A DNA stretch of 51,901 nt from contig JAUSJH010000021.1 in NCBI GenBank assembly GCA_030647655.1, positions 1 to 51,901 on the forward strand, in the 5' to 3' direction. Each line of letters opens with the position of its first letter. The stretch's first letter is position 1. A model generated the notes under the pieces. It had not been told where the DNA came from and made no database searches. It worked only from the letters and a program-made list of their open reading frames with translations. Shown one piece after another: positions 4,720 through 51,901 of the stretch. The position numbers and the translations under genes are program-made. Origin of the DNA: a bacterium (GTDB lineage: Bacteria > Patescibacteriota > Minisyncoccia > Phycocordibacterales > UBA2100).

Positions 4720-5470
4720 ATCCAAGAGGCGTCACCTCTTGGATTTGAACTCGCGGTTGAGGTCGGCGTAATAGTCGCGCATTTCAGCGAGCACCACGGA
4801 AAATCGCGGAAGACGGTCTATCAAGACGCTTCGTGCCGATTCATCCAGAATACCTCGCTCTATTCGCTCGATATCGCTTGCGTAGTCGGGGAAACTGGAA
4901 AATGGATACTGCGCGAGTTTTCGCTGAAGCGCAACCAGATTGGACACCTTACCGCGCTTCCACGAATGCTCGAATATTTCTACGGCATTAAGATGGATAT
5001 ATTGAGCAACTCGGTATAGGTATGTGTCGGTTGATACGTGCTTTGAACGAAACGGCTTCACGAAGATGTTGCCGACGCGGCCATGTTTTTCGTTGAAATA
5101 CATGCTGTATCCAGTGCCAACTTTCTGCATGAATCTCGATATGCCATCATCCTCGATCTCTTGAATAAGGAGATGGTAGTGATTCCTCATCAAACTATAT
5201 GCGCCAATCGCGACTATGGGACGTGTCCGGGGCATTCGAAGGATATCTTCATGTTTCCGGTGATAAAAGTTTTCACGCCGAATGGGCTCACTATCATTAG
5301 CCAGATAAAGTAACTCGGTGAATCGCTCCGCATCACGTTCATCCGTGAAGACAATACGCTTGTCTATGCCACGGGAGTAGCAGTGATACCACTCATCGGG
5401 CGCGAACGGTACTCGCCTGTACCCCATTACTCCAGCCTAGCACAAATCCAAGAGGTGACGCCTCTTGGAT
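4720..5470 (-). mobile_element. HUH transposase bracketed by 28-bp palindromic (REP-like) inverted repeats
   Basis: 4720-4747 ATCCAAGAGG-CGTCA-CCTCTTGGAT-TTG is the exact reverse complement of 5443-5470. Confidence 0.85.
4732..5427 (-). CDS. REP-associated tyrosine transposase (RAYT / Y1_Tnp, IS200-like HUH)
   Basis: YHCYSRG, YSLMRNHYHLL (HUH), YFNEKHGRVGNIF and YIHLN (catalytic Tyr) motifs. Confidence 0.9.
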   Translation of the reverse strand: MGYRRVPFAPDEWYHCYSRGIDKRIVFTDERDAERFTELLYLANDSEPIRRENFYHRKHEDILRMPRTRPIVAIGAYSLMRNHYHLLIQEIEDDGISRFMQKVGTGYSMYFNEKHGRVGNIFVKPFRSKHVSTDTYLYRVAQYIHLNAVEIFEHSWKRGKVSNLVALQRKLAQYPFSSFPDYASDIERIERGILDESARSVLIDRLPRFSVVLAEMRDYYADLNREFKSKR

Positions 5471-17609: not shown

Positions 17610-18635
17610 ATGAATACTAATACTCTGCGAGAAGTGGCGAAACAAATGGTGGCACCTGGTAAGGGAATTCTTGCGGCCGATGAAAGCACTGGTACGTGTG
17701 AGAAGCGTTTTGCGAAAATAGATGTTCCGTGCACGGAGGAGAACCGCAAAGCGTACCGTGGAATGCTGTTCGCAACACCAGGGCTCGGCGAATACATTTC
17801 TGGCGTCATTATGTACGACGAGACCATACGCCAAAGCGCACCAGACGGAACATCTTTCGTGCAAATACTCCAGAATGCCGGCATTTTGCCGGGTATCAAA
17901 GTCGATCAGGGAACCACGGCGATGGAAGGTTCGCCGAATGAGAAAGTTACGAAAGGATTGGAAGGTCTGCCGGAGCGCTTGAAGGAATATGCCACTCTCG
18001 GCGCGAAATTTGCCAAATGGCGGGCGGTTATTACCATAGACGCTGTTCTGCCTACCGATGCAAATATTCGTCAAAATGCGAAAGACCTCGCCGCGTACGC
18101 AAAAGCCTGTCAGGAAGCCGGCATAGTACCGATTGTCGAACCCGAGGTCCTCATGGATGGAACTCACTCGATGGAACGTTGTAGGGAGGTGAGCGAGCGC
18201 GCCCTTACGGCCCTATTTGAGGAGCTCAAGAATGCCAGCGTTTTGATAGAAGGTATTATCTTGAAGACCAACATGGTAATTCCCGCGAAGGAGAGTGGAG
18301 AGAAAAAGTCGGCGAGCGAGATCGCCGAAGCGACCGTCGCGCTCTTTAGAAAGATCTTGCCTGACAATTTGCCTGGGCAGGCATTCCTGTCAGGTGGGCA
18401 AAGCGAAGTGGAGGCGACAGAGAATCTCAACGCGATCAACAAGCGCGGGCCCCACCCGTGGAAGCTCTCATTTTCCTACGGTCGGGCCCTTCAGGACTCG
18501 GCTCTTAAAAAGTGGAAAGGCTCCAAGGAGAACGCGCCTGCCGCACAGAAAATCCTTCTCCATCGCGCGAAAATGAACTCACTCGCAACACTTGGCAAGT
18601 ACTCGAGCGAGATGGAAAACCGGAGCACGTCTTGA
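17610..18635 (+). CDS. Fructose-bisphosphate aldolase class I (glycolytic family)
   Basis: GKGILAADES, FAKWRAV, PIVEPEVL, FLSGGQ and FSYGRALQ motifs. Confidence 0.95.
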   Translation: MNTNTLREVAKQMVAPGKGILAADESTGTCEKRFAKIDVPCTEENRKAYRGMLFATPGLGEYISGVIMYDETIRQSAPDGTSFVQILQNAGILPGIKVDQGTTAMEGSPNEKVTKGLEGLPERLKEYATLGAKFAKWRAVITIDAVLPTDANIRQNAKDLAAYAKACQEAGIVPIVEPEVLMDGTHSMERCREVSERALTALFEELKNASVLIEGIILKTNMVIPAKESGEKKSASEIAEATVALFRKILPDNLPGQAFLSGGQSEVEATENLNAINKRGPHPWKLSFSYGRALQDSALKKWKGSKENAPAAQKILLHRAKMNSLATLGKYSSEMENRSTS

Positions 18636-19291: not shown

Positions 19292-19334
19292 ATGCCCGCA
19301 CCATTGGGTTGTCCACAGGAGGAAGAATCCTTTA

Positions 19335-19405
19335 TCGGGCCGCCGAGAATCGAACTCGGGCTACAAGACCCCCAGCCTTGCGTACTGCCACTATACGACG
19401 GCCCG
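19335..19405 (-). tRNA. tRNA-Pro(GGG)
   Basis: Minus strand CGGGCCG...CAAGG-CTGGGGG-TCTTG...GTTCGATTC...CGGCCCGA. Confidence 0.9.
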
Positions 19406-19424
19406 TCTGTTTTGAAGTTCTCTA

Positions 19425-19651
19425 TCGGGCCGCCGGGAATCCCTGCCTGCCGGCAGGCAGGGAACCCGGTCTCTACCCGCTTCGCGGCCGCAGGATGCTA
19501 CGCACATCCGGAGAAGCTCTTTTTTCGGGGTGCCGGGAATCGAACCCGGTCTACACGCACCCGAAGCGTGCGTACTACCGGTATACTACACCCCGAAAAA
19601 AGAGCTTCTCCCCAAAGCGCATGCCGTAAGGTACCGGTATACTACGGCCCG
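19425..19651 (-). pseudogene. Interrupted tRNA-Pro(TGG)-like gene containing a nested tRNA and small palindromic inserts
   Basis: 5' half CGGGCCGTAGTATACCGGTA...TGCGC-TTTGG (19651-19612); 3' half ...GTGCG...AGACCGGGTTC[20-bp palindrome]GATTCCCGGCGGCCCGA (19509-19425). Confidence 0.7.
19525..19595 (-). tRNA. tRNA-Pro(CGG), nested
   Basis: Intact 71-nt cloverleaf; CACGC-TTCGGGT-GCGTG anticodon arm. Confidence 0.92.
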
Positions 19652-19807
19652 ATAGAGAACTTCACCTTGTGGTCACAACTCTCGCTCGCTTCCGCTCGCT
19701 CGGTCGCGACCCCGCCTCACGGTCGCTCGCGTCCTCTACGCTCGCGACATCGTTCCGGCTTGCACAGCCGCACTCAATTTGCCGAAGGGCAAATCTCGTG
19801 TCGGCTG

Positions 19808-21570: not shown

Positions 21571-21641
21571 GGGCCTATAGTTCAGCGGTAGAACGCGTCC
21601 ATGGCATGGACGAGGTCGGGGTCCGACTCCCCGTAGGTCCA
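21571..21641 (+). tRNA. tRNA-Ala(GGC)
   Basis: G3-U70; CGTCC-ATGGCAT-GGACG anticodon arm; atypical T loop TCCGACT. Confidence 0.88.
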
Positions 21642-21782
21642 ATAGGTCAGAAAATGCCGGATTAATTTCCGGCTTTTTCTGTACCTTACCATGCAGGGGA
21701 GTCGGACCGCGGGCCGCAGGCGTCGACGAGACGCTGAAGGTTTCGAGCACAGCAGTGCGAGAGGCGACTCCCCGTAGGTCCA
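21642..21782 (+). repeat. 141-bp tRNA-3'-associated element, copy A
   Basis: 54-nt spacer, antisense T-arm (21696-21708), 56-nt core (21709-21764), 18-bp duplicate of tRNA 3' end (21765-21782). Confidence 0.85.
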
Positions 21783-29477: not shown

Positions 29478-31184
29478 ATGAGGTCCCGTTTTATTTTCCG
29501 CACAAGGGTTTTGTGCGGACTGTTTATCATCGTGGCGCTATTTCTCATCGTGCGTTTGTATGTTGTGCAGATCGTGCGCGGCGCAGGGTATCAGAGAGAC
29601 GCGACGGCACAATATGTGGCACCAAATCCTGATACGGGAAGCCGCGGCAGTATTCTTTTCCGCGCGAAGAACGATGAGCTCGTTTCGGCAGCTATCATGC
29701 AAACGGGCTGGCGTATCGCGATAAAGCCCGAAGATATAAATGAGCCAGAAAGCGTGTACGAAAAGTTGAACGCGCTTACCCCAATCGATCGTGAGCGTTT
29801 TTTCGTGAATGCAGCGAAAAAAGACGACCCGTATGAAGAGGTCGCTTTTCGTGTGGCCGACGATGTCGGACCTAAAATTCGCGCGCAGAAGATTCCCGGC
29901 GTAATACTCGTGCAGGATCAGTGGCGCTTCTATCCGGCGGGTACCCTCGCGGCACAAACAGTCGGGTTCGTTGGCTTCCGAGGAGCGACCAAAGCGGGGG
30001 TCTATGGGCTCGAGAATGAATGGGAGGAAACCCTCTCGCAAAAGAGAAGTGACCGCTATGTGAATCCGTTTGCGGAGATATTTATGAACATCGAAGCTGT
30101 GGCATCGAACGATCCCTCTGCGCATGAAGGTTCTATCGTGACTTCCATCGAGCCGTCTGTGGAGCAGCAACTTGAAACGACACTCGAGGCTGTGATGAAG
30201 ACATACTCGCCTCGCCTCGCGGGCGGTGTCATCATGGACCCGCATACAGGAGAAATAATCGCCATCGCAGCACATCCCACATTTGATCCCAACGCGTACA
30301 GTATTGTCGAAGACCCGGCTGTATTTTCGAATCCGCTCGTCGAAAATATCTATGAAATGGGTTCCATCATGAAGCCGCTTACGATGGCTGTGGGTATCGA
30401 CAGGGAAGTCGTCACGCCTTCGACCACGTACGACGACACGGGTTGCATCGAGAAAAGCGGCAAAAAGATATGCAATTACGACGGCAAAGCGCGCGGCGTC
30501 GTTTCTATGCAGGAAGTCTTGAATCAGTCATTGAATACCGGCGCGTCGTTCGTCGTGGACAAAATCGGGCACACCATCTTTGGCACCTATGTGAAAGCGC
30601 TCGAGCTCGGGAAAAAGACCGGCGTCGACCTGCCGAACGAAGCGACGGGGCGTATTCAACCAATAGAAAATGGATACGATGTGGATTACGCGAGCGCCTC
30701 CTTCGGACAGGGAATATCTGTTTCTCCGATTGCGATGACGCGCGCGCTTTCGGCACTTGCAAATGGCGGGGTCCTGCCAAGCCCGCACGTCGTAACCGCT
30801 ATCAAATATCAAAGCGGCATTACCCGCACTATCAAACCAGAGGAAGGACCGCGTGTTTTCAGTGCGACATCGACGGATACGGTAACGCGCATGCTCGTAA
30901 CCGTTTTCGACAAGGCGCTCTTGGGCGGAGTACTGAAACAAGAGCATTATTCCATCGCGGCGAAAACGGGCACCGCACAAATCGCGGTTTCCGGCGGGTA
31001 CTCTCCTGATCGCTTCCTCCACTCATTTTTCGGATACTTTCCGGCACACGACCCGAAGTTCATCGTTTTCCTTTTCGCGGTCGAGCCGCACGGCGCCGAA
31101 TTTGCCTCTGCGACGCTCGCACGACCCTTCCTCGAGATTGCGAAGTTCCTCATCAACTACTACAACATCCCACCGGATAGATAA
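29478..31184 (+). CDS. ftsI: Class B penicillin-binding protein (FtsI/PBP3)
   Basis: YEMGSIMKP, SLNTG and KTGTAQ motifs; dcw context. Confidence 0.9.
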   Translation: MRSRFIFRTRVLCGLFIIVALFLIVRLYVVQIVRGAGYQRDATAQYVAPNPDTGSRGSILFRAKNDELVSAAIMQTGWRIAIKPEDINEPESVYEKLNALTPIDRERFFVNAAKKDDPYEEVAFRVADDVGPKIRAQKIPGVILVQDQWRFYPAGTLAAQTVGFVGFRGATKAGVYGLENEWEETLSQKRSDRYVNPFAEIFMNIEAVASNDPSAHEGSIVTSIEPSVEQQLETTLEAVMKTYSPRLAGGVIMDPHTGEIIAIAAHPTFDPNAYSIVEDPAVFSNPLVENIYEMGSIMKPLTMAVGIDREVVTPSTTYDDTGCIEKSGKKICNYDGKARGVVSMQEVLNQSLNTGASFVVDKIGHTIFGTYVKALELGKKTGVDLPNEATGRIQPIENGYDVDYASASFGQGISVSPIAMTRALSALANGGVLPSPHVVTAIKYQSGITRTIKPEEGPRVFSATSTDTVTRMLVTVFDKALLGGVLKQEHYSIAAKTGTAQIAVSGGYSPDRFLHSFFGYFPAHDPKFIVFLFAVEPHGAEFASATLARPFLEIAKFLINYYNIPPDR

Positions 31185-31189
31185 ATAGT

Positions 31190-31528
31190 ATGCAATGCAA
31201 GACATGTAAAGTAATCTCGCGTTTTTCCGGCAAGAAATTCCTCATGCCGCTCCTCGGTCATCGGTATTCGATAATTACTCTCGAGGCAGTGCGAGTGCAC
31301 GTGAGCGACCTCGATCTTGAGATAGGGGGAGGATTGGAAACCCGCGGGTGGACCTCCAATGATATAGATGTGAACGGCACTCGGGCCGATGTGTCGGTGT
31401 TTGCGAAGCGGCTCAAACAAAACGGGATAGAGCATCCGGTCCATTACTGTGGTCCGCATACAGGGCACTCACACGTTCTCTGTGCATTAAATGGCATCAA
31501 GCTGGCGCTCACGGGGAGAGGGTACTAG
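31190..31528 (+). CDS. Hypothetical protein
   Basis: ORF exactly fills the gap between ftsI and the next gene; CxxC at N-terminus; no recognised family. Confidence 0.5.
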   Translation: MQCKTCKVISRFSGKKFLMPLLGHRYSIITLEAVRVHVSDLDLEIGGGLETRGWTSNDIDVNGTRADVSVFAKRLKQNGIEHPVHYCGPHTGHSHVLCALNGIKLALTGRGY

Positions 31529-31533
31529 TTGAT

Positions 31534-32226
31534 ATGCCAACAGATTACACCTACGCGTACACTCTGCTCGTTTGCTTCTTCACGCTTGTATGGGTAATTT
31601 TATTTATTATACGTAAGGATCTCCGGCGAGAAATGTTCATCATGTCTCTCCTCGCGGCCCCGCTCGGGCCTTTCGGTGATTTTTTCTATCAGCGCGATTA
31701 CTATCTACTTCCCATCCTGAACGGACATTACTGGTGGATATATTCTCTCGCGTGCGGTTTCGTCTATGGCGGTGTAGCGGCGGTGCTCTATGAGACGCTC
31801 TTGAAAGAACATCACCGTATCCAGCGGGGTATCCGTAAAAAACAGGGGAGGCATTATTGGTGGTTTTGGGCCGTCTTTTTAGGCGGCGGTGCCTTCATGT
31901 ATGTGGGCACATTCTTACTGCAGATAAACTCGATTTATGTTTCTTTTTGCGTGATGTTTTTGGGGGCTTTATGGATCGGCTATCAGAGGAAAGATTTGTT
32001 GGTCGAGGCTGTCGGAAGCGGACTTGCTCTCATGGCAGTAACGACAGTTTTCTACCTTGTGCTCCAACTCGTATTTCCCGGGATATTTGAGACTCAATGG
32101 AACATCGCAAGTCTCTCGGGCCTGTTTATTCTCGGGATTCCGGTAGAGGAATACGTATGGGCCTTTATGTGGGGTCTTATCACAGGACCCGCGTATGAGT
32201 ACGTAATGGCTATAAAGATGCGATAA
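31534..32226 (+). CDS. Lycopene-cyclase-domain-like membrane protein
   Basis: Two repeated halves RKDL..E; C-terminal ILGIPVEEYVW motif. Confidence 0.65.
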   Translation: MPTDYTYAYTLLVCFFTLVWVILFIIRKDLRREMFIMSLLAAPLGPFGDFFYQRDYYLLPILNGHYWWIYSLACGFVYGGVAAVLYETLLKEHHRIQRGIRKKQGRHYWWFWAVFLGGGAFMYVGTFLLQINSIYVSFCVMFLGALWIGYQRKDLLVEAVGSGLALMAVTTVFYLVLQLVFPGIFETQWNIASLSGLFILGIPVEEYVWAFMWGLITGPAYEYVMAIKMR

Positions 32227-32271
32227 ACACTTCCGTTTTGTCTTAATTTGAAATACAATCGCCCAGTGTGC

Positions 32272-32343
32272 GGCTCCATCGTCTAACGGTTAGGACGGAA
32301 GCTTCTCAAGCTTCAAATCGGGGTTCGATTCCCCGTGGAGTCA
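32272..32343 (+). tRNA. tRNA-Glu(CTC)
   Basis: GGCTCCA/TGGAGTC acceptor; GAAGC-TTCTCAA-GCTTC anticodon arm. Confidence 0.92.
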
Positions 32344-32484
32344 AAATTTTGGCGCAGCCGAATATTTGGCCCTACAGCGAAGTGATACACTTCGCGTGGG
32401 GAATTGAACCGCGGGCCGCAGGGCTCGAAGAGAGCCCGAAGGTTTCGAGCGTGCCAACGCGAGAGGCGATTCCCCGTGGAGTCA
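32344..32484 (+). repeat. 141-bp tRNA-3'-associated element, copy B
   Basis: 54-nt spacer, antisense T-arm (32398-32410), 56-nt core (32411-32466), 18-bp duplicate of tRNA 3' end (32467-32484). Confidence 0.85.
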
Positions 32485-33013
32485 CAATGTAGAATTTCGG
32501 CAGGAGTGAGCGAAAAACTCCCGCGCGCATAAGCTCAAACGCTCCCAACAAGGAAGCGGTGTAAACGATGTCGCCCGTGAGCATATTGCGTAGAAATGGA
32601 ATACCGAGTTCGTACGAATACAAAAGACCGAAAATACTCTTTTCGTACCACGGCGAGAAAAGCCACACCGCGGCATTTGTAATAAGGAAGAAAAATAGTG
32701 ATGACGCAATGACCGAAAGAAAGACAGGGAGAACTCCGCTATATTTCCTACTCATCCAGCTCCAGCATCCGATGAGGGCAAAAGAGCCGTACACGCTCGC
32801 CATGATTTTCCAATCATAAAAACCGATGAACATATCTGACAAGAACAGCGCACAGAGAGGAAGAAGCATAGACCATCGCTTGCCGAGATAGATGCTGCCC
32901 GCGAAAGCAATCGCGGTTATAGGCGTCGCGTTGGGGAGATGCGGCAGTAAACGTACCATGATGCCAAAGCAAACGAGCGCACCCGCCGCGAGCAAGATGT
33001 GGTTGCGCCGCAT
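32372..33013 (-). CDS. DUF6580-like membrane protein, putative ECF-type S component
   Basis: RLLPHLPNATPITAIA...LFLSDMFIGFY...FFFLITNAAVW...GIPFLRNML.GD; C-terminus reads through the tRNA-associated element. Confidence 0.75.
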   Translation of the reverse strand: MRRNHILLAAGALVCFGIMVRLLPHLPNATPITAIAFAGSIYLGKRWSMLLPLCALFLSDMFIGFYDWKIMASVYGSFALIGCWSWMSRKYSGVLPVFLSVIASSLFFFLITNAAVWLFSPWYEKSIFGLLYSYELGIPFLRNMLTGDIVYTASLLGAFELMRAGVFRSLLPKFYIVTPRGIASRVGTLETFGLSSSPAARGSIPHAKCITSL

Positions 33014-33016
33014 AGG

Positions 33017-33451
33017 CTAGAATGTAGATTCGCCAAAGTACCACTCGACGGAATCACCACCCTTCAAAACGTACGCATCCGCACCAATTTGAGGCATAAC
33101 CCCGTTCACTTTGTACTGCCAATATTTCTTATCAGTACCATTTTTATTCCCATGCATCCCGTCAACCAACGTGCCCAGTCCCGAATACTCTTTCGTAGAA
33201 AGCTGAAGCTGTGAATCTCCTGTATTCATTGTCTGCAGTATTCCAAGCACCGTGGCGTTCTCTGATATTGGCACGGATTTGTTCGTATACAGACCCTCAA
33301 TCGTGATAGATACGGTACCTGTCTGCGTAACTTCCTGCCGCGCAGAGCTAGCCGGTGATGTTGTTTTGCCCGTGTATGCAAATAATCCCGCGACAAAAGC
33401 GAGGAGCAACAATCCAATTCCTATTATCTGCCAAGTTCGTTTTGAGCTCAT
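33017..33451 (-). CDS. DUF4430 domain protein (transcobalamin C-terminal-like), membrane anchored
   Basis: GLGTLVDGM...YWQYKVNGVMPQIGADAYVLKGGDSVEW. Confidence 0.8.
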   Translation of the reverse strand: MSSKRTWQIIGIGLLLLAFVAGLFAYTGKTTSPASSARQEVTQTGTVSITIEGLYTNKSVPISENATVLGILQTMNTGDSQLQLSTKEYSGLGTLVDGMHGNKNGTDKKYWQYKVNGVMPQIGADAYVLKGGDSVEWYFGESTF

Positions 33452-33518
33452 ATCGTCCGTATCTGATTACGAATATAACGGTGGTGTTCCATCGTCTCCA
33501 TTCCTCATGTATAGCATA

Positions 33519-35861
33519 TTACGACGAGGAAACCGCTTCGCCTGAAGGCACCGCGACATCAATGTCACAGACGCCGCCAACACACGCGAGTTCTTTTCTC
33601 TGCTCGGTTTCGTCTGAGTGTTCATAGGTGACAAGTTTGCTGTAATCGATGCGTGGGAAACTTGCAGCGAGTTCCTCATATCTTTTTTTGTCTATTGTCT
33701 CGTATGGTGCGAGACGATATACATGGTCAAAGCGCGGCAGGAAAGATAGCCCGCCGATTATATCCCAGTTTTTTTGTATCCAATCTACGACACCAATCCA
33801 CTCATCCTCGCCGACCGAAATAGTCGCGGAAGGATTATGCTCCGTGTAATTGAGCTTCACAATTTTCCAATATTCCAACTGTTCAATGGAAGTCACATCG
33901 TCTTTGAACACTTCGCTATCAGGTGCCTCTACGGGAAATTCCAAGACGTAGGTACTTGCACTACCATCCGATTGACCGACTTCCGGATGATGCGGGACAC
34001 CTTGGTCCTTGAGCATCTGGAAAAGCGAGTCGGTTGCAGAGATGCGCACTCTACGGATATAGTATTTCGCGTGACGCGGATGAATACCCGAGGAGCAGTT
34101 GAATGTTTGAGAGACGGTTCCGGAAGGTTTGACCGCCGTGACGGACATCGAAGGTTTGATGCCGAAACGTTTTGCATACGATGCATTGGCTTTGATCGCT
34201 TCATCACGCATAGCGCGTAGAGTTTCCGGTTTACGTGCTTCCGCGCTGTCCCACTGGCCTGTGACTGATACGCCGAGCAGTCTCTCTTCCTCGCAGTGTT
34301 TTTTCCATGCTTTCGAAATATAGCGGAAATTGGTGAGCATCGATTGGTATGTACCCAAAAGCGCGGCGAGCCGCGCCTTGCGCACAAGAGTCTCGTGCGT
34401 GTCCTCCGCGCGAGCGATAACCTCGGAAAGGTTGCAGAATTGCTTGGATTGCAAGATAATCTCGCCGCACGGGTTTGTCCCTATAGGGCCTTGCACAACG
34501 CCATCTTCATCAATAAAACCGGCTCTTTTGAAGTATTTAGCGCGTCGTTTTGGGAGAGAGTTCCGTAGTGCGCCGCGATTAAAAATGCCGCGCTCACCCG
34601 AACCGCTCTTCATAAGCGCCGCCCACTCTTCTATGAGTTCCGTATTGGAAGGCTTCGCCTCATACACTGCCGAATTGTTGGCTACAGAACGATGCGGCTC
34701 GGTGAGGAAGAATTGCCCTTTCTTTGCATCGCGTAATTCGGCGTCATCAAGATCGGAGAGGCTGATCATGGCTGTGCGACGCACGCCACCCGAGACAACG
34801 CATTCGCCGATCTTACAAATGATGTCGTGCACATCAATGCTCCGGAGCCGCCTTCCTTGCCGCCGCAATATTTTTTCGCGAGCGAACGCGAGAAGCGAAC
34901 GCAGTGGTTCCGGACCTGATGCCTTACCACCCATAGTCTTGAGCCGCGCGCCGGCGGGACGGATGAGAGAAAAATCAAATTCAATATCATAACCCTTGTA
35001 CCAAGTTTGAAGTCCGAGTGTTAGCGCATCACACCAACCTTCTTTTGAATCCTTTATGACATGTGTCGGCGACTTCTTCTTTGTCTGTTTTTTGATCTGA
35101 GGCAGTTGTTCTATATTTTGGCTCTCGACAGCAAATCCCACGCCGCATCCCTGCATTGAAAGATACATAATCTCGGCAAGATCTCCGATCTTTGTCGGAG
35201 CAATGAATGAGCAGTTGTATGCACAGGTATTGCATCTGCGTGCAGGCTCTCCGGCAAACTGCATCAGCCGCATCGAAGGCATCACTTCCTGCCGTAGGAT
35301 CGCATCACGTAGCTCGGAATATTCTTCCGCGGCGAGTTTGTCGCCCACGTTCTCTTTCATGAACTCCATATAACGATCGACAGTTTCTATCCACGTCTCA
35401 CGTCTGTTTTCTCCTACCTTCCAACGCGCATAGGTCCTCAAGTAAACAAATTCGCCGAGCAGATTACCTTCGAAATATTTCTTGCTCTCCTCGGCAAGCG
35501 CGCGGATGTGTTCCGGAACGTCTCCCCGCATTTCCCGAATGCGAGTGCGCTCGGCTCGATAGAGAATGTAGGCTTTGGCTGTTGCGGGAAATTTGTGCAA
35601 CATCAATTCTGCCTCAACCATGTCTTGCACGCCTTCGACCGTTGGGACAAACGAAGTGTCCGACTGTTTTTGTGCAAGCAATTTATTGGAAATAGTATCA
35701 GCTATTTTTTCCGCGGCACCGTCTTTAAATTCATCGGACGCTCGCATTGCCTTTTTTACTGCAAGGATGATTTTATTTGCGTCAAAAGGAACGACAGAAC
35801 CACCCCGCTTTCTTATTGCGAATAGTTGTGTCGGGCCGTTGACGACGTGACTACTTTTCAT
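33519..35861 (-). CDS. nrdJ: Class II (adenosylcobalamin-dependent) ribonucleotide reductase with N-terminal ATP cone
   Basis: IRKRGGSVVPFDANKI ATP cone; YNC, SGPEPL, GGVRR, TNPCGEI, VKPSGT; C-terminal CVGGVC. Confidence 0.9.
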   Translation of the reverse strand: MKSSHVVNGPTQLFAIRKRGGSVVPFDANKIILAVKKAMRASDEFKDGAAEKIADTISNKLLAQKQSDTSFVPTVEGVQDMVEAELMLHKFPATAKAYILYRAERTRIREMRGDVPEHIRALAEESKKYFEGNLLGEFVYLRTYARWKVGENRRETWIETVDRYMEFMKENVGDKLAAEEYSELRDAILRQEVMPSMRLMQFAGEPARRCNTCAYNCSFIAPTKIGDLAEIMYLSMQGCGVGFAVESQNIEQLPQIKKQTKKKSPTHVIKDSKEGWCDALTLGLQTWYKGYDIEFDFSLIRPAGARLKTMGGKASGPEPLRSLLAFAREKILRRQGRRLRSIDVHDIICKIGECVVSGGVRRTAMISLSDLDDAELRDAKKGQFFLTEPHRSVANNSAVYEAKPSNTELIEEWAALMKSGSGERGIFNRGALRNSLPKRRAKYFKRAGFIDEDGVVQGPIGTNPCGEIILQSKQFCNLSEVIARAEDTHETLVRKARLAALLGTYQSMLTNFRYISKAWKKHCEEERLLGVSVTGQWDSAEARKPETLRAMRDEAIKANASYAKRFGIKPSMSVTAVKPSGTVSQTFNCSSGIHPRHAKYYIRRVRISATDSLFQMLKDQGVPHHPEVGQSDGSASTYVLEFPVEAPDSEVFKDDVTSIEQLEYWKIVKLNYTEHNPSATISVGEDEWIGVVDWIQKNWDIIGGLSFLPRFDHVYRLAPYETIDKKRYEELAASFPRIDYSKLVTYEHSDETEQRKELACVGGVCDIDVAVPSGEAVSSS

Positions 35862-51568: not shown

Positions 51569-51901
51569 CAAAGCTTAACCTCAAATCAGGACTTCTCTTT
51601 GCGACCCGCCTTGCGTTGGCGGCGGTTTTTGCCGTCATATTCTTCGGCGTATTTATCACACCCGCAAACGCAACAACATCTTATCCTGTTGGCAGTAATC
51701 CAACAGGAGTTGCCTTTGACAATGTTACCAACTCTATGTGGGTGACAAATATGGGTTCACACACCATTAGCAAATTAGACATCAACACGGGAACCAGAAC
51801 CGATTATCCTGTTGGTGACAATCCCCTTGGTGTTGCCTTTGATAATGTTACTAACTCTGTATGGGTGGCAAATCAGTTATCCAGCACTGTTAGTAAAGTG
51901 A
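51565..51901 (+). CDS. Secreted YVTN/YncE-like beta-propeller repeat protein (runs off window end)
   Basis: MTKLNL...signal peptide; 41-aa (123-bp) repeat YPVG.NP.GVAFDNVTNS.WV.N at 51682 and 51805. Confidence 0.85.
   Translation, partial: MTKLNLKSGLLFATRLALAAVFAVIFFGVFITPANATTSYPVGSNPTGVAFDNVTNSMWVTNMGSHTISKLDINTGTRTDYPVGDNPLGVAFDNVTNSVWVANQLSSTVSKV

Follow-up and report, generated by a model that had tools for sequence, protein, structure and literature searches.

What is the element that lies directly behind the tRNA-Glu(CTC) gene of this small bacterial genome, and what does its presence mean for the protein-coding frame that runs into it from the opposite strand? To answer this, we examined the window, by which we mean the whole stretch of 51,901 nucleotides, together with its own genome (G000; 0.9 Mb, 99% complete) and its relatives, to which the other G labels refer. 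All positions are window coordinates unless a contig is named. The terms DR1 and DR2 denote the first and second copy of tRNA positions 56 to 73, and a unit comprises one DR1-type copy, a spacer, an antisense arm and a core.

A folded unit closed by a second copy of the tRNA end

The repeat behind tRNA-Glu(CTC) extends, in tRNA numbering, from the third T-loop base through the discriminator. An exact search for this 18-mer finds precisely two occurrences in the window, both on the forward strand, and none of 100 dinucleotide shuffles gives two or more matches. A repeat search of the window recovered the same pair of 18-nt sequences that an earlier note on this DNA had described, with the 141-nt spacing that is also seen at tRNA-Ala(GGC) (Table 1). 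The single mismatch that had been assigned to the Glu antisense arm was confirmed as well, wherein 12 of 13 nucleotides are complementary to tRNA positions 52 to 64. At the sister locus, the arm mirrors even the unusual T-loop of tRNA-Ala(GGC). Pairwise alignment of the two loci shows that the cores are nearly identical outside their two stems, and that the differences within the stems are compensatory. The spacers are indeed equal in length and unrelated in sequence, since both are 54 nt long and do not align with each other. Hairpins are predicted in both, as had been noted, with z = −2.15 for Glu (5 of 200 shuffles as good) and z = −7.64 for Ala (0 of 200). The Ala hairpin scores as intrinsic-terminator-like; the Glu spacer scores negative.

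Table 1. Coordinates of the tRNA-Glu(CTC) unit, its sister unit and related features in G000 and its relatives.
Feature	Position	Strand	Remarks
tRNA-Glu(CTC) gene	32272–32343	+	CCA not encoded; ARAGORN; Rfam tRNA, 62.1 bits
Glu DR1	32326–32343	+	tRNA 56–73: T-loop 3′ part, T-stem 3′ strand, acceptor 3′ strand, discriminator
Glu spacer	32344–32397	+	54 nt; locus-specific sequence; two small hairpins, the stronger at ~32377–32395; no T-run terminator
Glu antisense T-arm	32398–32410	+	Complement of tRNA 64 to 52, 12/13; first 9 nt pair with DR2 (helix P1)
Glu core	32411–32466	+	56 nt, conserved (covariation counts, column conservation)
Core, single-stranded GC-GGGCCGCA	32411–32420	+
Core, hairpin 1	32421–32426/32432–32437	+	Loop GAAGA, 32427–32431
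Core, joiner GAAG	32438–32441	+
Hairpin 2	32442–32467	+	Two U·G pairs, GA/GA internal loop, 4-nt loop 32453–32456
Glu DR2	32467–32484	+	Second exact copy of tRNA 56–73
DUF6580 ORF	32372–33013	−	213 aa; codons 177–213 (32372–32484 with stop) read from the element
tRNA-Ala(GGC) with unit	21571–21782	+
tRNA-Ala(GGC)	21571–21641	+
Ala DR1	21624–21641	+
Ala spacer	21642–21695	+	Terminator-like hairpin 21656–21673 plus T-run
Ala antisense arm	21696–21708	+	13/13
Ala core	21709–21764	+
Ala DR2	21765–21782	+
Second tyrosine recombinase	G000:C20:7128–8117	−	Hydrophobic N-terminal stretch
Large serine recombinase frame	G000:C20:16429–17127	+	608 aa
Island (L063)	G073:C11:12500–31600		At tRNA-Gln(TTG)
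54-nt hairpin module	G000:C3:21369–21512; C3:8841–8984; C20:18156–18296; C20:21577–21717; C19:8449–8596
54-nt hairpin module, further sites	G000:C3:144245–144330; L018 (G024:C10); L063:712–770 (G073)		Alone (G000); after DR2 (L018)

We built a covariance model (the CPR model) from seven copies, plus core motifs. In an alignment of 35 copies fitted to this model, which favors structure, 94.1% of the cells in the three helices pair, compared with 80.3% for shuffled partners and at most 52% for slid partners, and 14 of 24 pairs have changed on both sides. Pairing in these copies reaches 97.5% for hairpin 1 and 98.8% for hairpin 2. The 57 copies from species genomes, fitted in the same way, pair at 93.2%, with changes on both sides in all six hairpin 1 pairs. 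An unfitted alignment of the seven copies already had 10 of 24 compensated pairs. One U·G pair is present in 34 of 35 and in 57 of 57 copies, and the adjacent pair is either U·G or C·G. Because these U·G pairs would be A·C mismatches on the other strand, the fold belongs to the tRNA-sense strand only. The loop of hairpin 1 reads GA-N-GA in 34 of 35 copies, a frame of four purines and one free base that we take to have the appearance of a GNRA-like pentaloop. The GA/GA internal loop of hairpin 2 is also conserved, and column conservation shows that the unpaired GGGCCGCA is almost invariant.

The two segments that copy the tRNA follow it to different degrees. Among 23 parsed copies from the genus, DR2 agrees with the resident tRNA throughout its 18 positions in 16 (range, 13–18), and the antisense arm matches at 8 to 13 of 13 positions, with all 13 matched in four copies only. 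Thus, the match to the local tRNA is closer for DR2 than for the arm. Even so, the arm is complementary to tRNA 52–64 at 10 to 13 of 13 positions in 21 of these copies, and the boundary of the repeat, from position 56 to 73, is precise, with an extension of 0 to 3 nt in 22 of them. At three tRNA-Tyr loci the arm does not track the resident T-stem. At tRNA-Tyr of G032, the arm and DR2 pair with each other at 9 of 9 positions, yet both differ from the resident tRNA at three.

Two candidate origins were considered and rejected. Inspection by eye did not support the core as an antisense tRNA body, wherein a T-stem is missing and the would-be anticodon loop is wrong. A CCA after DR2, as a sign of an RNA-mediated origin from a mature tRNA, follows only 5 of 38 copies. 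The nucleotide C follows DR2 in 32 of 38 copies, but it also follows DR1 in 28 of 38.

A repeat family of the Patescibacteria and its spacers

The Glu unit is one member of a folded repeat family that extends across Patescibacteria. A scan of G000 with the covariance model finds eight strong copies and one weaker copy, and of its 41 tRNA genes, all of which were surveyed, eight are followed on the tRNA strand by their own 3′-end repeat with the element. These genes encode tRNA-Leu(GAG), Arg(TCT), Arg(GCG), Ala(GGC), Glu(CTC), Asn(GTT), Ser(CGA) and one tRNA-Gln(TTG). Parsed copies in relatives likewise lie on the tRNA strand. The model matches 7 of 36 genomes of the same genus and none of 24 genomes that belong to other families in the order, and the element is present in 17 of 116 genomes of the genus, G000 counted. 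An exact two-motif pattern, applied to one genome per prokaryote species, yielded 60 loci, 57 of which are confirmed by the covariance model. The confirmed loci are nearly all labelled as Patescibacteria lineages, including Kaiser-, Lipton-, Nomura-, Harrison-, Azam-, Taylor- and Giovannonibacteria, Paceibacterota and others. A matching tRNA end within 380 nt is missing for 22 of 56 species-genome copies.

A locus in Photobacterium that carries the pattern proved to be a chance repeat to which the model gives no match. An origin from phages or plasmids was rejected, wherein a 14-mer scan of viral contigs returned only chance matches and 0 of 80 fetched loci fit the model; the two-motif pattern had no match in the viral contigs searched. 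An Rfam search with the unit placed only the tRNA above its gathering score, and no known ribozyme or RNA family matched. A literature search, mainly of titles and abstracts, found no description of such tRNA-linked units in Patescibacteria.

Conservation on this scale bears on the proposal that the unit is a functionless scar left by tRNA-gene duplication or by repeated island integration and excision. Such debris does exist at tRNA loci, as exemplified by the partial tRNA-Pro ends at 19330–19652 and by the tRNA-Gln 5′ fragment of G073. However, the 56-nt core is kept in many Patescibacteria lineages, with compensatory changes in both hairpins and with invariant unpaired bases. Decay does not produce such a pattern, and we regard the scar explanation as highly improbable.

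The equal spacer lengths of the Glu and Ala units had led to the suggestion that length is constrained mechanistically. Spacer lengths are clustered, but the exact 54-nt and 141-nt identity is not a rule of the family. Spacers of the 23 parsed genus copies measure −5, 27, 30 and 30 nt and then 46 to 60 nt in the remaining 19, and those of 34 parsed species-genome copies measure 43 to 61 nt in 29 cases and 6, 7, 27, 28 and 28 nt in the others, where the two sets overlap in part. The 54 nt of the window copies therefore fall within the mode of a clustered distribution that is not fixed. A simple terminator test was positive for 15 of 26 rows, three of which were mis-assigned; in the correctly assigned set, a terminator-like hairpin with its T-run fills about 14 of 23 spacers, with Ala included and Glu not. 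Terminator hairpins of this kind may account for the length cluster without any mechanism that measures distance.

The frame that enters the Glu unit from the opposite strand encodes a protein whose Pfam DUF6580 domain spans residues 8 to 164 (E = 1.1e-39). As previously claimed, this minus-strand frame is open until position 32372 and takes its end from the element. Codon 177 begins at 32485, so the last 37 codons are derived from DR2, the core, the antisense arm and part of the spacer. Four DUF6580 homologues, found among 60 other genomes of the genus, lack the 37-codon tail and end 15 to 25 residues past the conserved C-terminal motif. None of the four adjoins a tRNA, and the comparison thus provides no empty site for the Glu/DUF6580 locus. 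When one 141-nt unit is removed in silico, the frame remains open, continues 12 codons into the antisense strand of the tRNA and gives a protein of 188 aa. As the frame has no stop of its own after this removal, the unit lengthened an end that was already overlapping. The proposal that insertion displaced or extended the 3′ end of the neighbor therefore holds for the extension, whereas no normal stop was displaced. The peptide encoded by a reading frame across the Ala copy is similar, a likeness that stems solely from core conservation. We infer that the predicted read-through tail is a by-product of the unit. Such units can create read-through tails, and annotators should not take them for true protein ends.

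Resemblance to the TLRs of Escherichia coli

The closest architectural parallel to the unit is found among the tRNA-linked repeats (TLRs) of E. coli, a group that includes the 178-bp tyrT repeats with the RttR (RtT) RNA and the rrn-operon sRNAs RrA, RrB and RrF. According to the sections of PMC8144298 on which we draw, these elements have been known since 1978 (Egan and Landy 1978 and Rudd 1999 are cited there), E. coli K-12 carries 22 of them at ten loci, and they have no known function and an unexplained origin. Their hallmark is a terminal stretch of 18 to 19 bp that exactly repeats the 3′ end of the preceding tRNA or 5S gene. As described there, RrB is produced when transcription continues through terminator T1, and its two ends lie 3 nt beyond 5S and 3 nt beyond the repeat. 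The authors propose the repeat as an RNase E signal; read-through transcription with processing at the repeat was shown for RrB only (PMC8144298).

In each unit of the E. coli tyrT-tyrV-rttR region, a spacer of 56 to 59 nt is combined with an arm that is antisense, though imperfectly, to the T-arm of tRNA-Tyr, with a core of hairpins and with the 19-nt tRNA end. The unit that follows T1 in rrnB has an antisense T-arm of the tRNA type although the upstream gene is 5S, and its end is made up of 13 nt from 5S and 5 nt from the trailer. The antisense T-arm in tyrT and rrnB is an observation of the present analysis and not a published TLR criterion. Like the TLRs, which follow either a tRNA or a 5S gene, the patescibacterial units adjoin a tRNA gene at its 3′ side in the same orientation, can occur in tandem and encode no protein. 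They end in a 3′-end copy of 18 nt (18 of 18 for both Glu and Ala), compared with 18 to 19 nt in the TLRs, and they combine an antisense T-arm with a hairpin-rich core behind a spacer of ~50 nt, compared with 56 to 59 nt at tyrT. A terminator stands between gene and unit in rrnB, as do the terminator-like hairpins of many spacers here, and a few short words are held in common (AAGGTT..TCGAGCG..CGAGAG; GCCGCAGG).

The two groups differ in other respects. There is no significant sequence homology, and the patescibacterial core is shorter (56 nt). The tRNA genes here do not encode CCA, such that the repeat covers positions 56–73 rather than 58–76, and some patescibacterial units carry genes or an extra 54-nt hairpin module. 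When the CPR model is applied to E. coli, the three tyrT units are its top three matches and are in register, but they score only 9 to 10 bits (E = 0.05–0.11). Conversely, the Rfam RtT family (RF00391) gave no match to the unit at E values up to 10. The two groups have the same architecture, and homology is at most weakly suggested by the sequences.

These comparisons suggest a possible reading of the unit as a TLR-type small RNA that is made by read-through and trimmed at its tRNA-like end. This reading, on which we settle tentatively, is the best supported, given a fold restricted to the sense strand, RNA-type motifs, terminator-like spacers and the precedent in E. coli. The unit would be transcribed from the tRNA promoter when polymerase reads through the spacer hairpin or terminator. 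The antisense arm would then pair with DR2 and close the core, and the tRNA-like 3′ end could allow the tRNA 3′-end machinery to trim the transcript to a small stable RNA, as has been proposed for RrB. Recombination at the repeated 3′ end, together with gene conversion between copies, might account for the gain and loss of units and for their re-matching to the local tRNA.

Several observations weigh against this reading. If the spacer contains a terminator, expression would be limited as well. DR2 and the antisense arm do not make a full acceptor/T minihelix, and it is not evident that RNase Z or the CCA-adding enzyme would recognize them. Strand-biased conservation of structure also occurs in single-stranded DNA recombination sites, such as integron attC. 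The patchy distribution, the stacking and a 3.1-kb gene-holding unit, which are described below, resemble mobile DNA more than a housekeeping RNA, and the weak sequence similarity to the E. coli elements counts against assigning the unit to the TLRs.

The pairing potential of the arm is also consistent with a cis-acting switch of tRNA maturation, wherein the arm would pair with its own T-arm and DR2 would replace DR1 in the acceptor stem. The read-through precursor would then adopt a shape other than that of a tRNA and be degraded or processed differently, which would tune tRNA output. Indeed, the minimum-energy fold of 32272–32484 (−107.5 kcal/mol, z = −6.88, 0 of 200 shuffles as good) pairs the 5′ acceptor strand with DR2 and the T-arm with the antisense arm, leaving both core hairpins intact, and the complementarity of 10 to 13 nt found in 21 of 23 copies fits this arrangement. 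We nevertheless consider a switch unlikely. Co-transcriptional folding favors formation of the tRNA first, perfect arms are kept in copies that lie kilobases from the tRNA (G073), the arm in E. coli rrnB is tRNA-like despite the upstream 5S gene, and the arm departs from the resident T-stem at three tRNA-Tyr loci.

Addition, exchange and the search for a partner enzyme

How units come to lie behind tRNA genes is illustrated by three tRNA-Tyr loci that have a common downstream flank. One unit is present in G115, and in G034 one unit is followed by a second terminator-like stretch. In G117, a new unit with a different spacer lies between the tRNA and a unit of the G034 type, which is truncated. 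This comparison indicates that whole units, with their spacers, are added next to the tRNA, and it supports the 141-nt unit that had been proposed. Moreover, identical cores with unrelated spacers and with arms matched to each tRNA are found at the Trp and Tyr loci of G034 and at the Arg(GCG) and Arg(TCT) loci of G000. The Gln(TTG) copies of G000 and G010 have a spacer in common and differ in the whole of hairpin 1, a pattern that implies block exchange between copies. The Glu(CTC) copies of G000 and G024 have common hairpin sequences, consistent with vertical persistence.

Larger segments are also found between such repeats. At tRNA-Ser(CGA) of G000, three tRNA-end repeats bracket a unit, a 3.1-kb segment and another unit; the segment contains a 62-aa ORF and a P-type cation ATPase and ends in a variant core and repeat. 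The tRNA-Gln(TTG) gene of G073 is separated by an 18-kb island from a copy with arms that match this tRNA perfectly. Genes on the island encode a large serine recombinase, a SMODS/AGS_C protein (CBASS-like), a terminase-like ATPase, a ParB-methylase and a 2433-aa RHS/SpvB/FG-GAP protein. A search of sequencing runs for positions 30500–34500 listed no RNA run. In contigs from four DNA runs, the assembly breaks at units, and the core has roughly ten-fold depth; no usable empty site was present among the 15 joints listed out of 225.

Other repeats were encountered near these loci. A separate hairpin module of ~54 nt comprises GGCTCCC, an 8- to 9-bp stem, a covarying inner hairpin and GCAGTCC. It is inserted inside some cores to give “long” units of 195 to 206 nt, and it is usually preceded by ..GGTAG, ..GCAG or ..GCGG. 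The module is located inside DR2 of the G024 Glu(CTC) copy and is absent from the G000 orthologue, lies reversed in DR2 of the G000 Asn copy, and is also found in a tRNA-Gln 5′ fragment and alone. The module resembles an independent small mobile element. In G073, a tRNA-Gln 5′ fragment (positions 1–22) is situated 150 nt upstream of the tRNA. The window also contains partial 3′ and 5′ tRNA-Pro ends around tRNA-Pro(GGG) and tRNA-Pro(CGG) (19330–19652; repeat families D2 and D4), with no core. Near its end (51681–51897), two direct repeats of 94 nt, 123 nt apart and 73% identical, are probably part of a repeat-domain coding region.

The main rival to the small RNA reading is a gene-less integrative cassette, a mobile DNA module that would enter at the tRNA T-loop or 3′ end by site-specific recombination. 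The folded region of antisense arm, core and DR2 would then be an attachment site like attC, and the spacer would be a minimal cargo slot. Direct repeats of the 3′ part of the tRNA do flank inserted DNA here. Stacking by tRNA (G117 compared with G034 and G115 at tRNA-Tyr), the tRNA-Ser(CGA) array with its 3.1-kb cargo, the G073 island, the precise boundary from position 56 to 73, the patchy occurrence in 17 of 116 genomes of the genus and the identical cores with matched arms at different tRNAs all speak for a cassette.

If a cassette of this type were responsible, a cognate enzyme might be expected to accompany it. No gene is present inside the Glu or Ala unit, and across 116 genomes of the genus no cognate integrase was found inside the element or co-occurring with it. 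Reverse transcriptase, IS110 and TnpB-type proteins have no match in G000. Because IS110 and TnpB matches are lacking there, the unit does not qualify as an IS110 bridge-RNA or IS605 omega-RNA module. Phage_integrase, a generic model that is not IntI-specific, matches only two proteins of G000, one of them Xer-like. The other, a second tyrosine recombinase, occurs in 2 of 116 genomes of the genus, namely G000 and, broken by stops, G106. The Recombinase domain of large serine recombinases is found in 80 of the 116 genomes and in 11 of the 17 that bear the element. In G000, the 608-aa frame ends beside tRNA-Glu(TTC) (17801–17873) and tRNA-Ser(CGA) (18012–18096), the pair with the three-unit ATPase array, and a second large serine recombinase of 593 aa lies near the other tRNA-Gln(TTG) on contig C11. 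Y1_Tnp is present in 108 of 116 genomes, with up to 16 matches per genome; G000 has four such frames (IS200/RAYT-like, 234–257 aa), one of them at window positions 4993–5244 on the minus strand. Thus, neither the second tyrosine recombinase nor the serine recombinases nor the Y1 transposases track the element.

This lack of an accompanying enzyme argues against the cassette, as does the finding of no copy in the viral contigs searched. In addition, a crossover in the T-loop of another tRNA would leave a chimeric tRNA, and none was seen, and the invariant U·G pairs and GNRA-like loop suit RNA better than DNA. On balance, we consider a cassette doubtful, though it deserves serious attention.

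Comparison with known DNA elements gives a similarly mixed picture. The attachment-site duplications that tyrosine and serine integrases leave at tRNA genes likewise have a repeat that starts in the T-loop, can be stacked and have islands at the same loci (G073). They differ from the unit in that no integrase is inside it or linked to it, its 123-nt body is too small to encode anything, and this body is a conserved, covarying fold and not the terminal part of something larger. Integron attC sites and the REP/REPIN hairpins mobilized by Y1/RAYT enzymes resemble the unit in keeping structure over sequence, in their strand-specific folds, in their imperfect inverted arms and in their cassette-like arrays of variable content. 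In contrast to both, the arms here copy the target tRNA and are not an invariable recombination box. With 18 nt, the repeat greatly exceeds the attC crossover core in length, and the generic Phage_integrase model identified no IntI-type partner in G000; as for REP/RAYT, Y1 enzymes are near-universal in the genus, whereas the element is not. Among RNAs, 3′ETS-leuZ is similar in being a small RNA that is freed from the part of a tRNA precursor beyond its last tRNA, but the introduction of PMC8144298 describes neither a tRNA 3′-end repeat nor an antisense T-arm for it.

A further reading is decidedly unlikely. The antisense arm and DR2 could be two guides of a self-targeting RNA or single-stranded DNA scaffold, one for the top and the other for the bottom strand of the T-arm region of the tRNA gene, by analogy with guide pairs in bridge RNAs or TIGR arrays. 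This scaffold would recruit a host enzyme and thereby add units, with or without cargo, at the 3′ ends of stable-RNA genes. If so, TLR-type elements would constitute a widespread, protein-less programmable insertion system of both Patescibacteria and enterobacteria.

Whether or not the trimmed small RNA that we tentatively favor is made, the units observed here are real and add to a known yet unexplained kind of element, the TLRs. They represent a second family with the same three-part logic of antisense T-arm, folded core and copied tRNA tail, in a very distant phylum. The recurrence of this architecture with unrelated sequence and strong covariation, at such a phylogenetic distance, suggests that the architecture itself is selected or is made by a common mechanism. 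The family supplies many independent copies for comparative work, and it marks the tRNA loci where cargo genes and islands accumulate in the tiny genomes of CPR bacteria.
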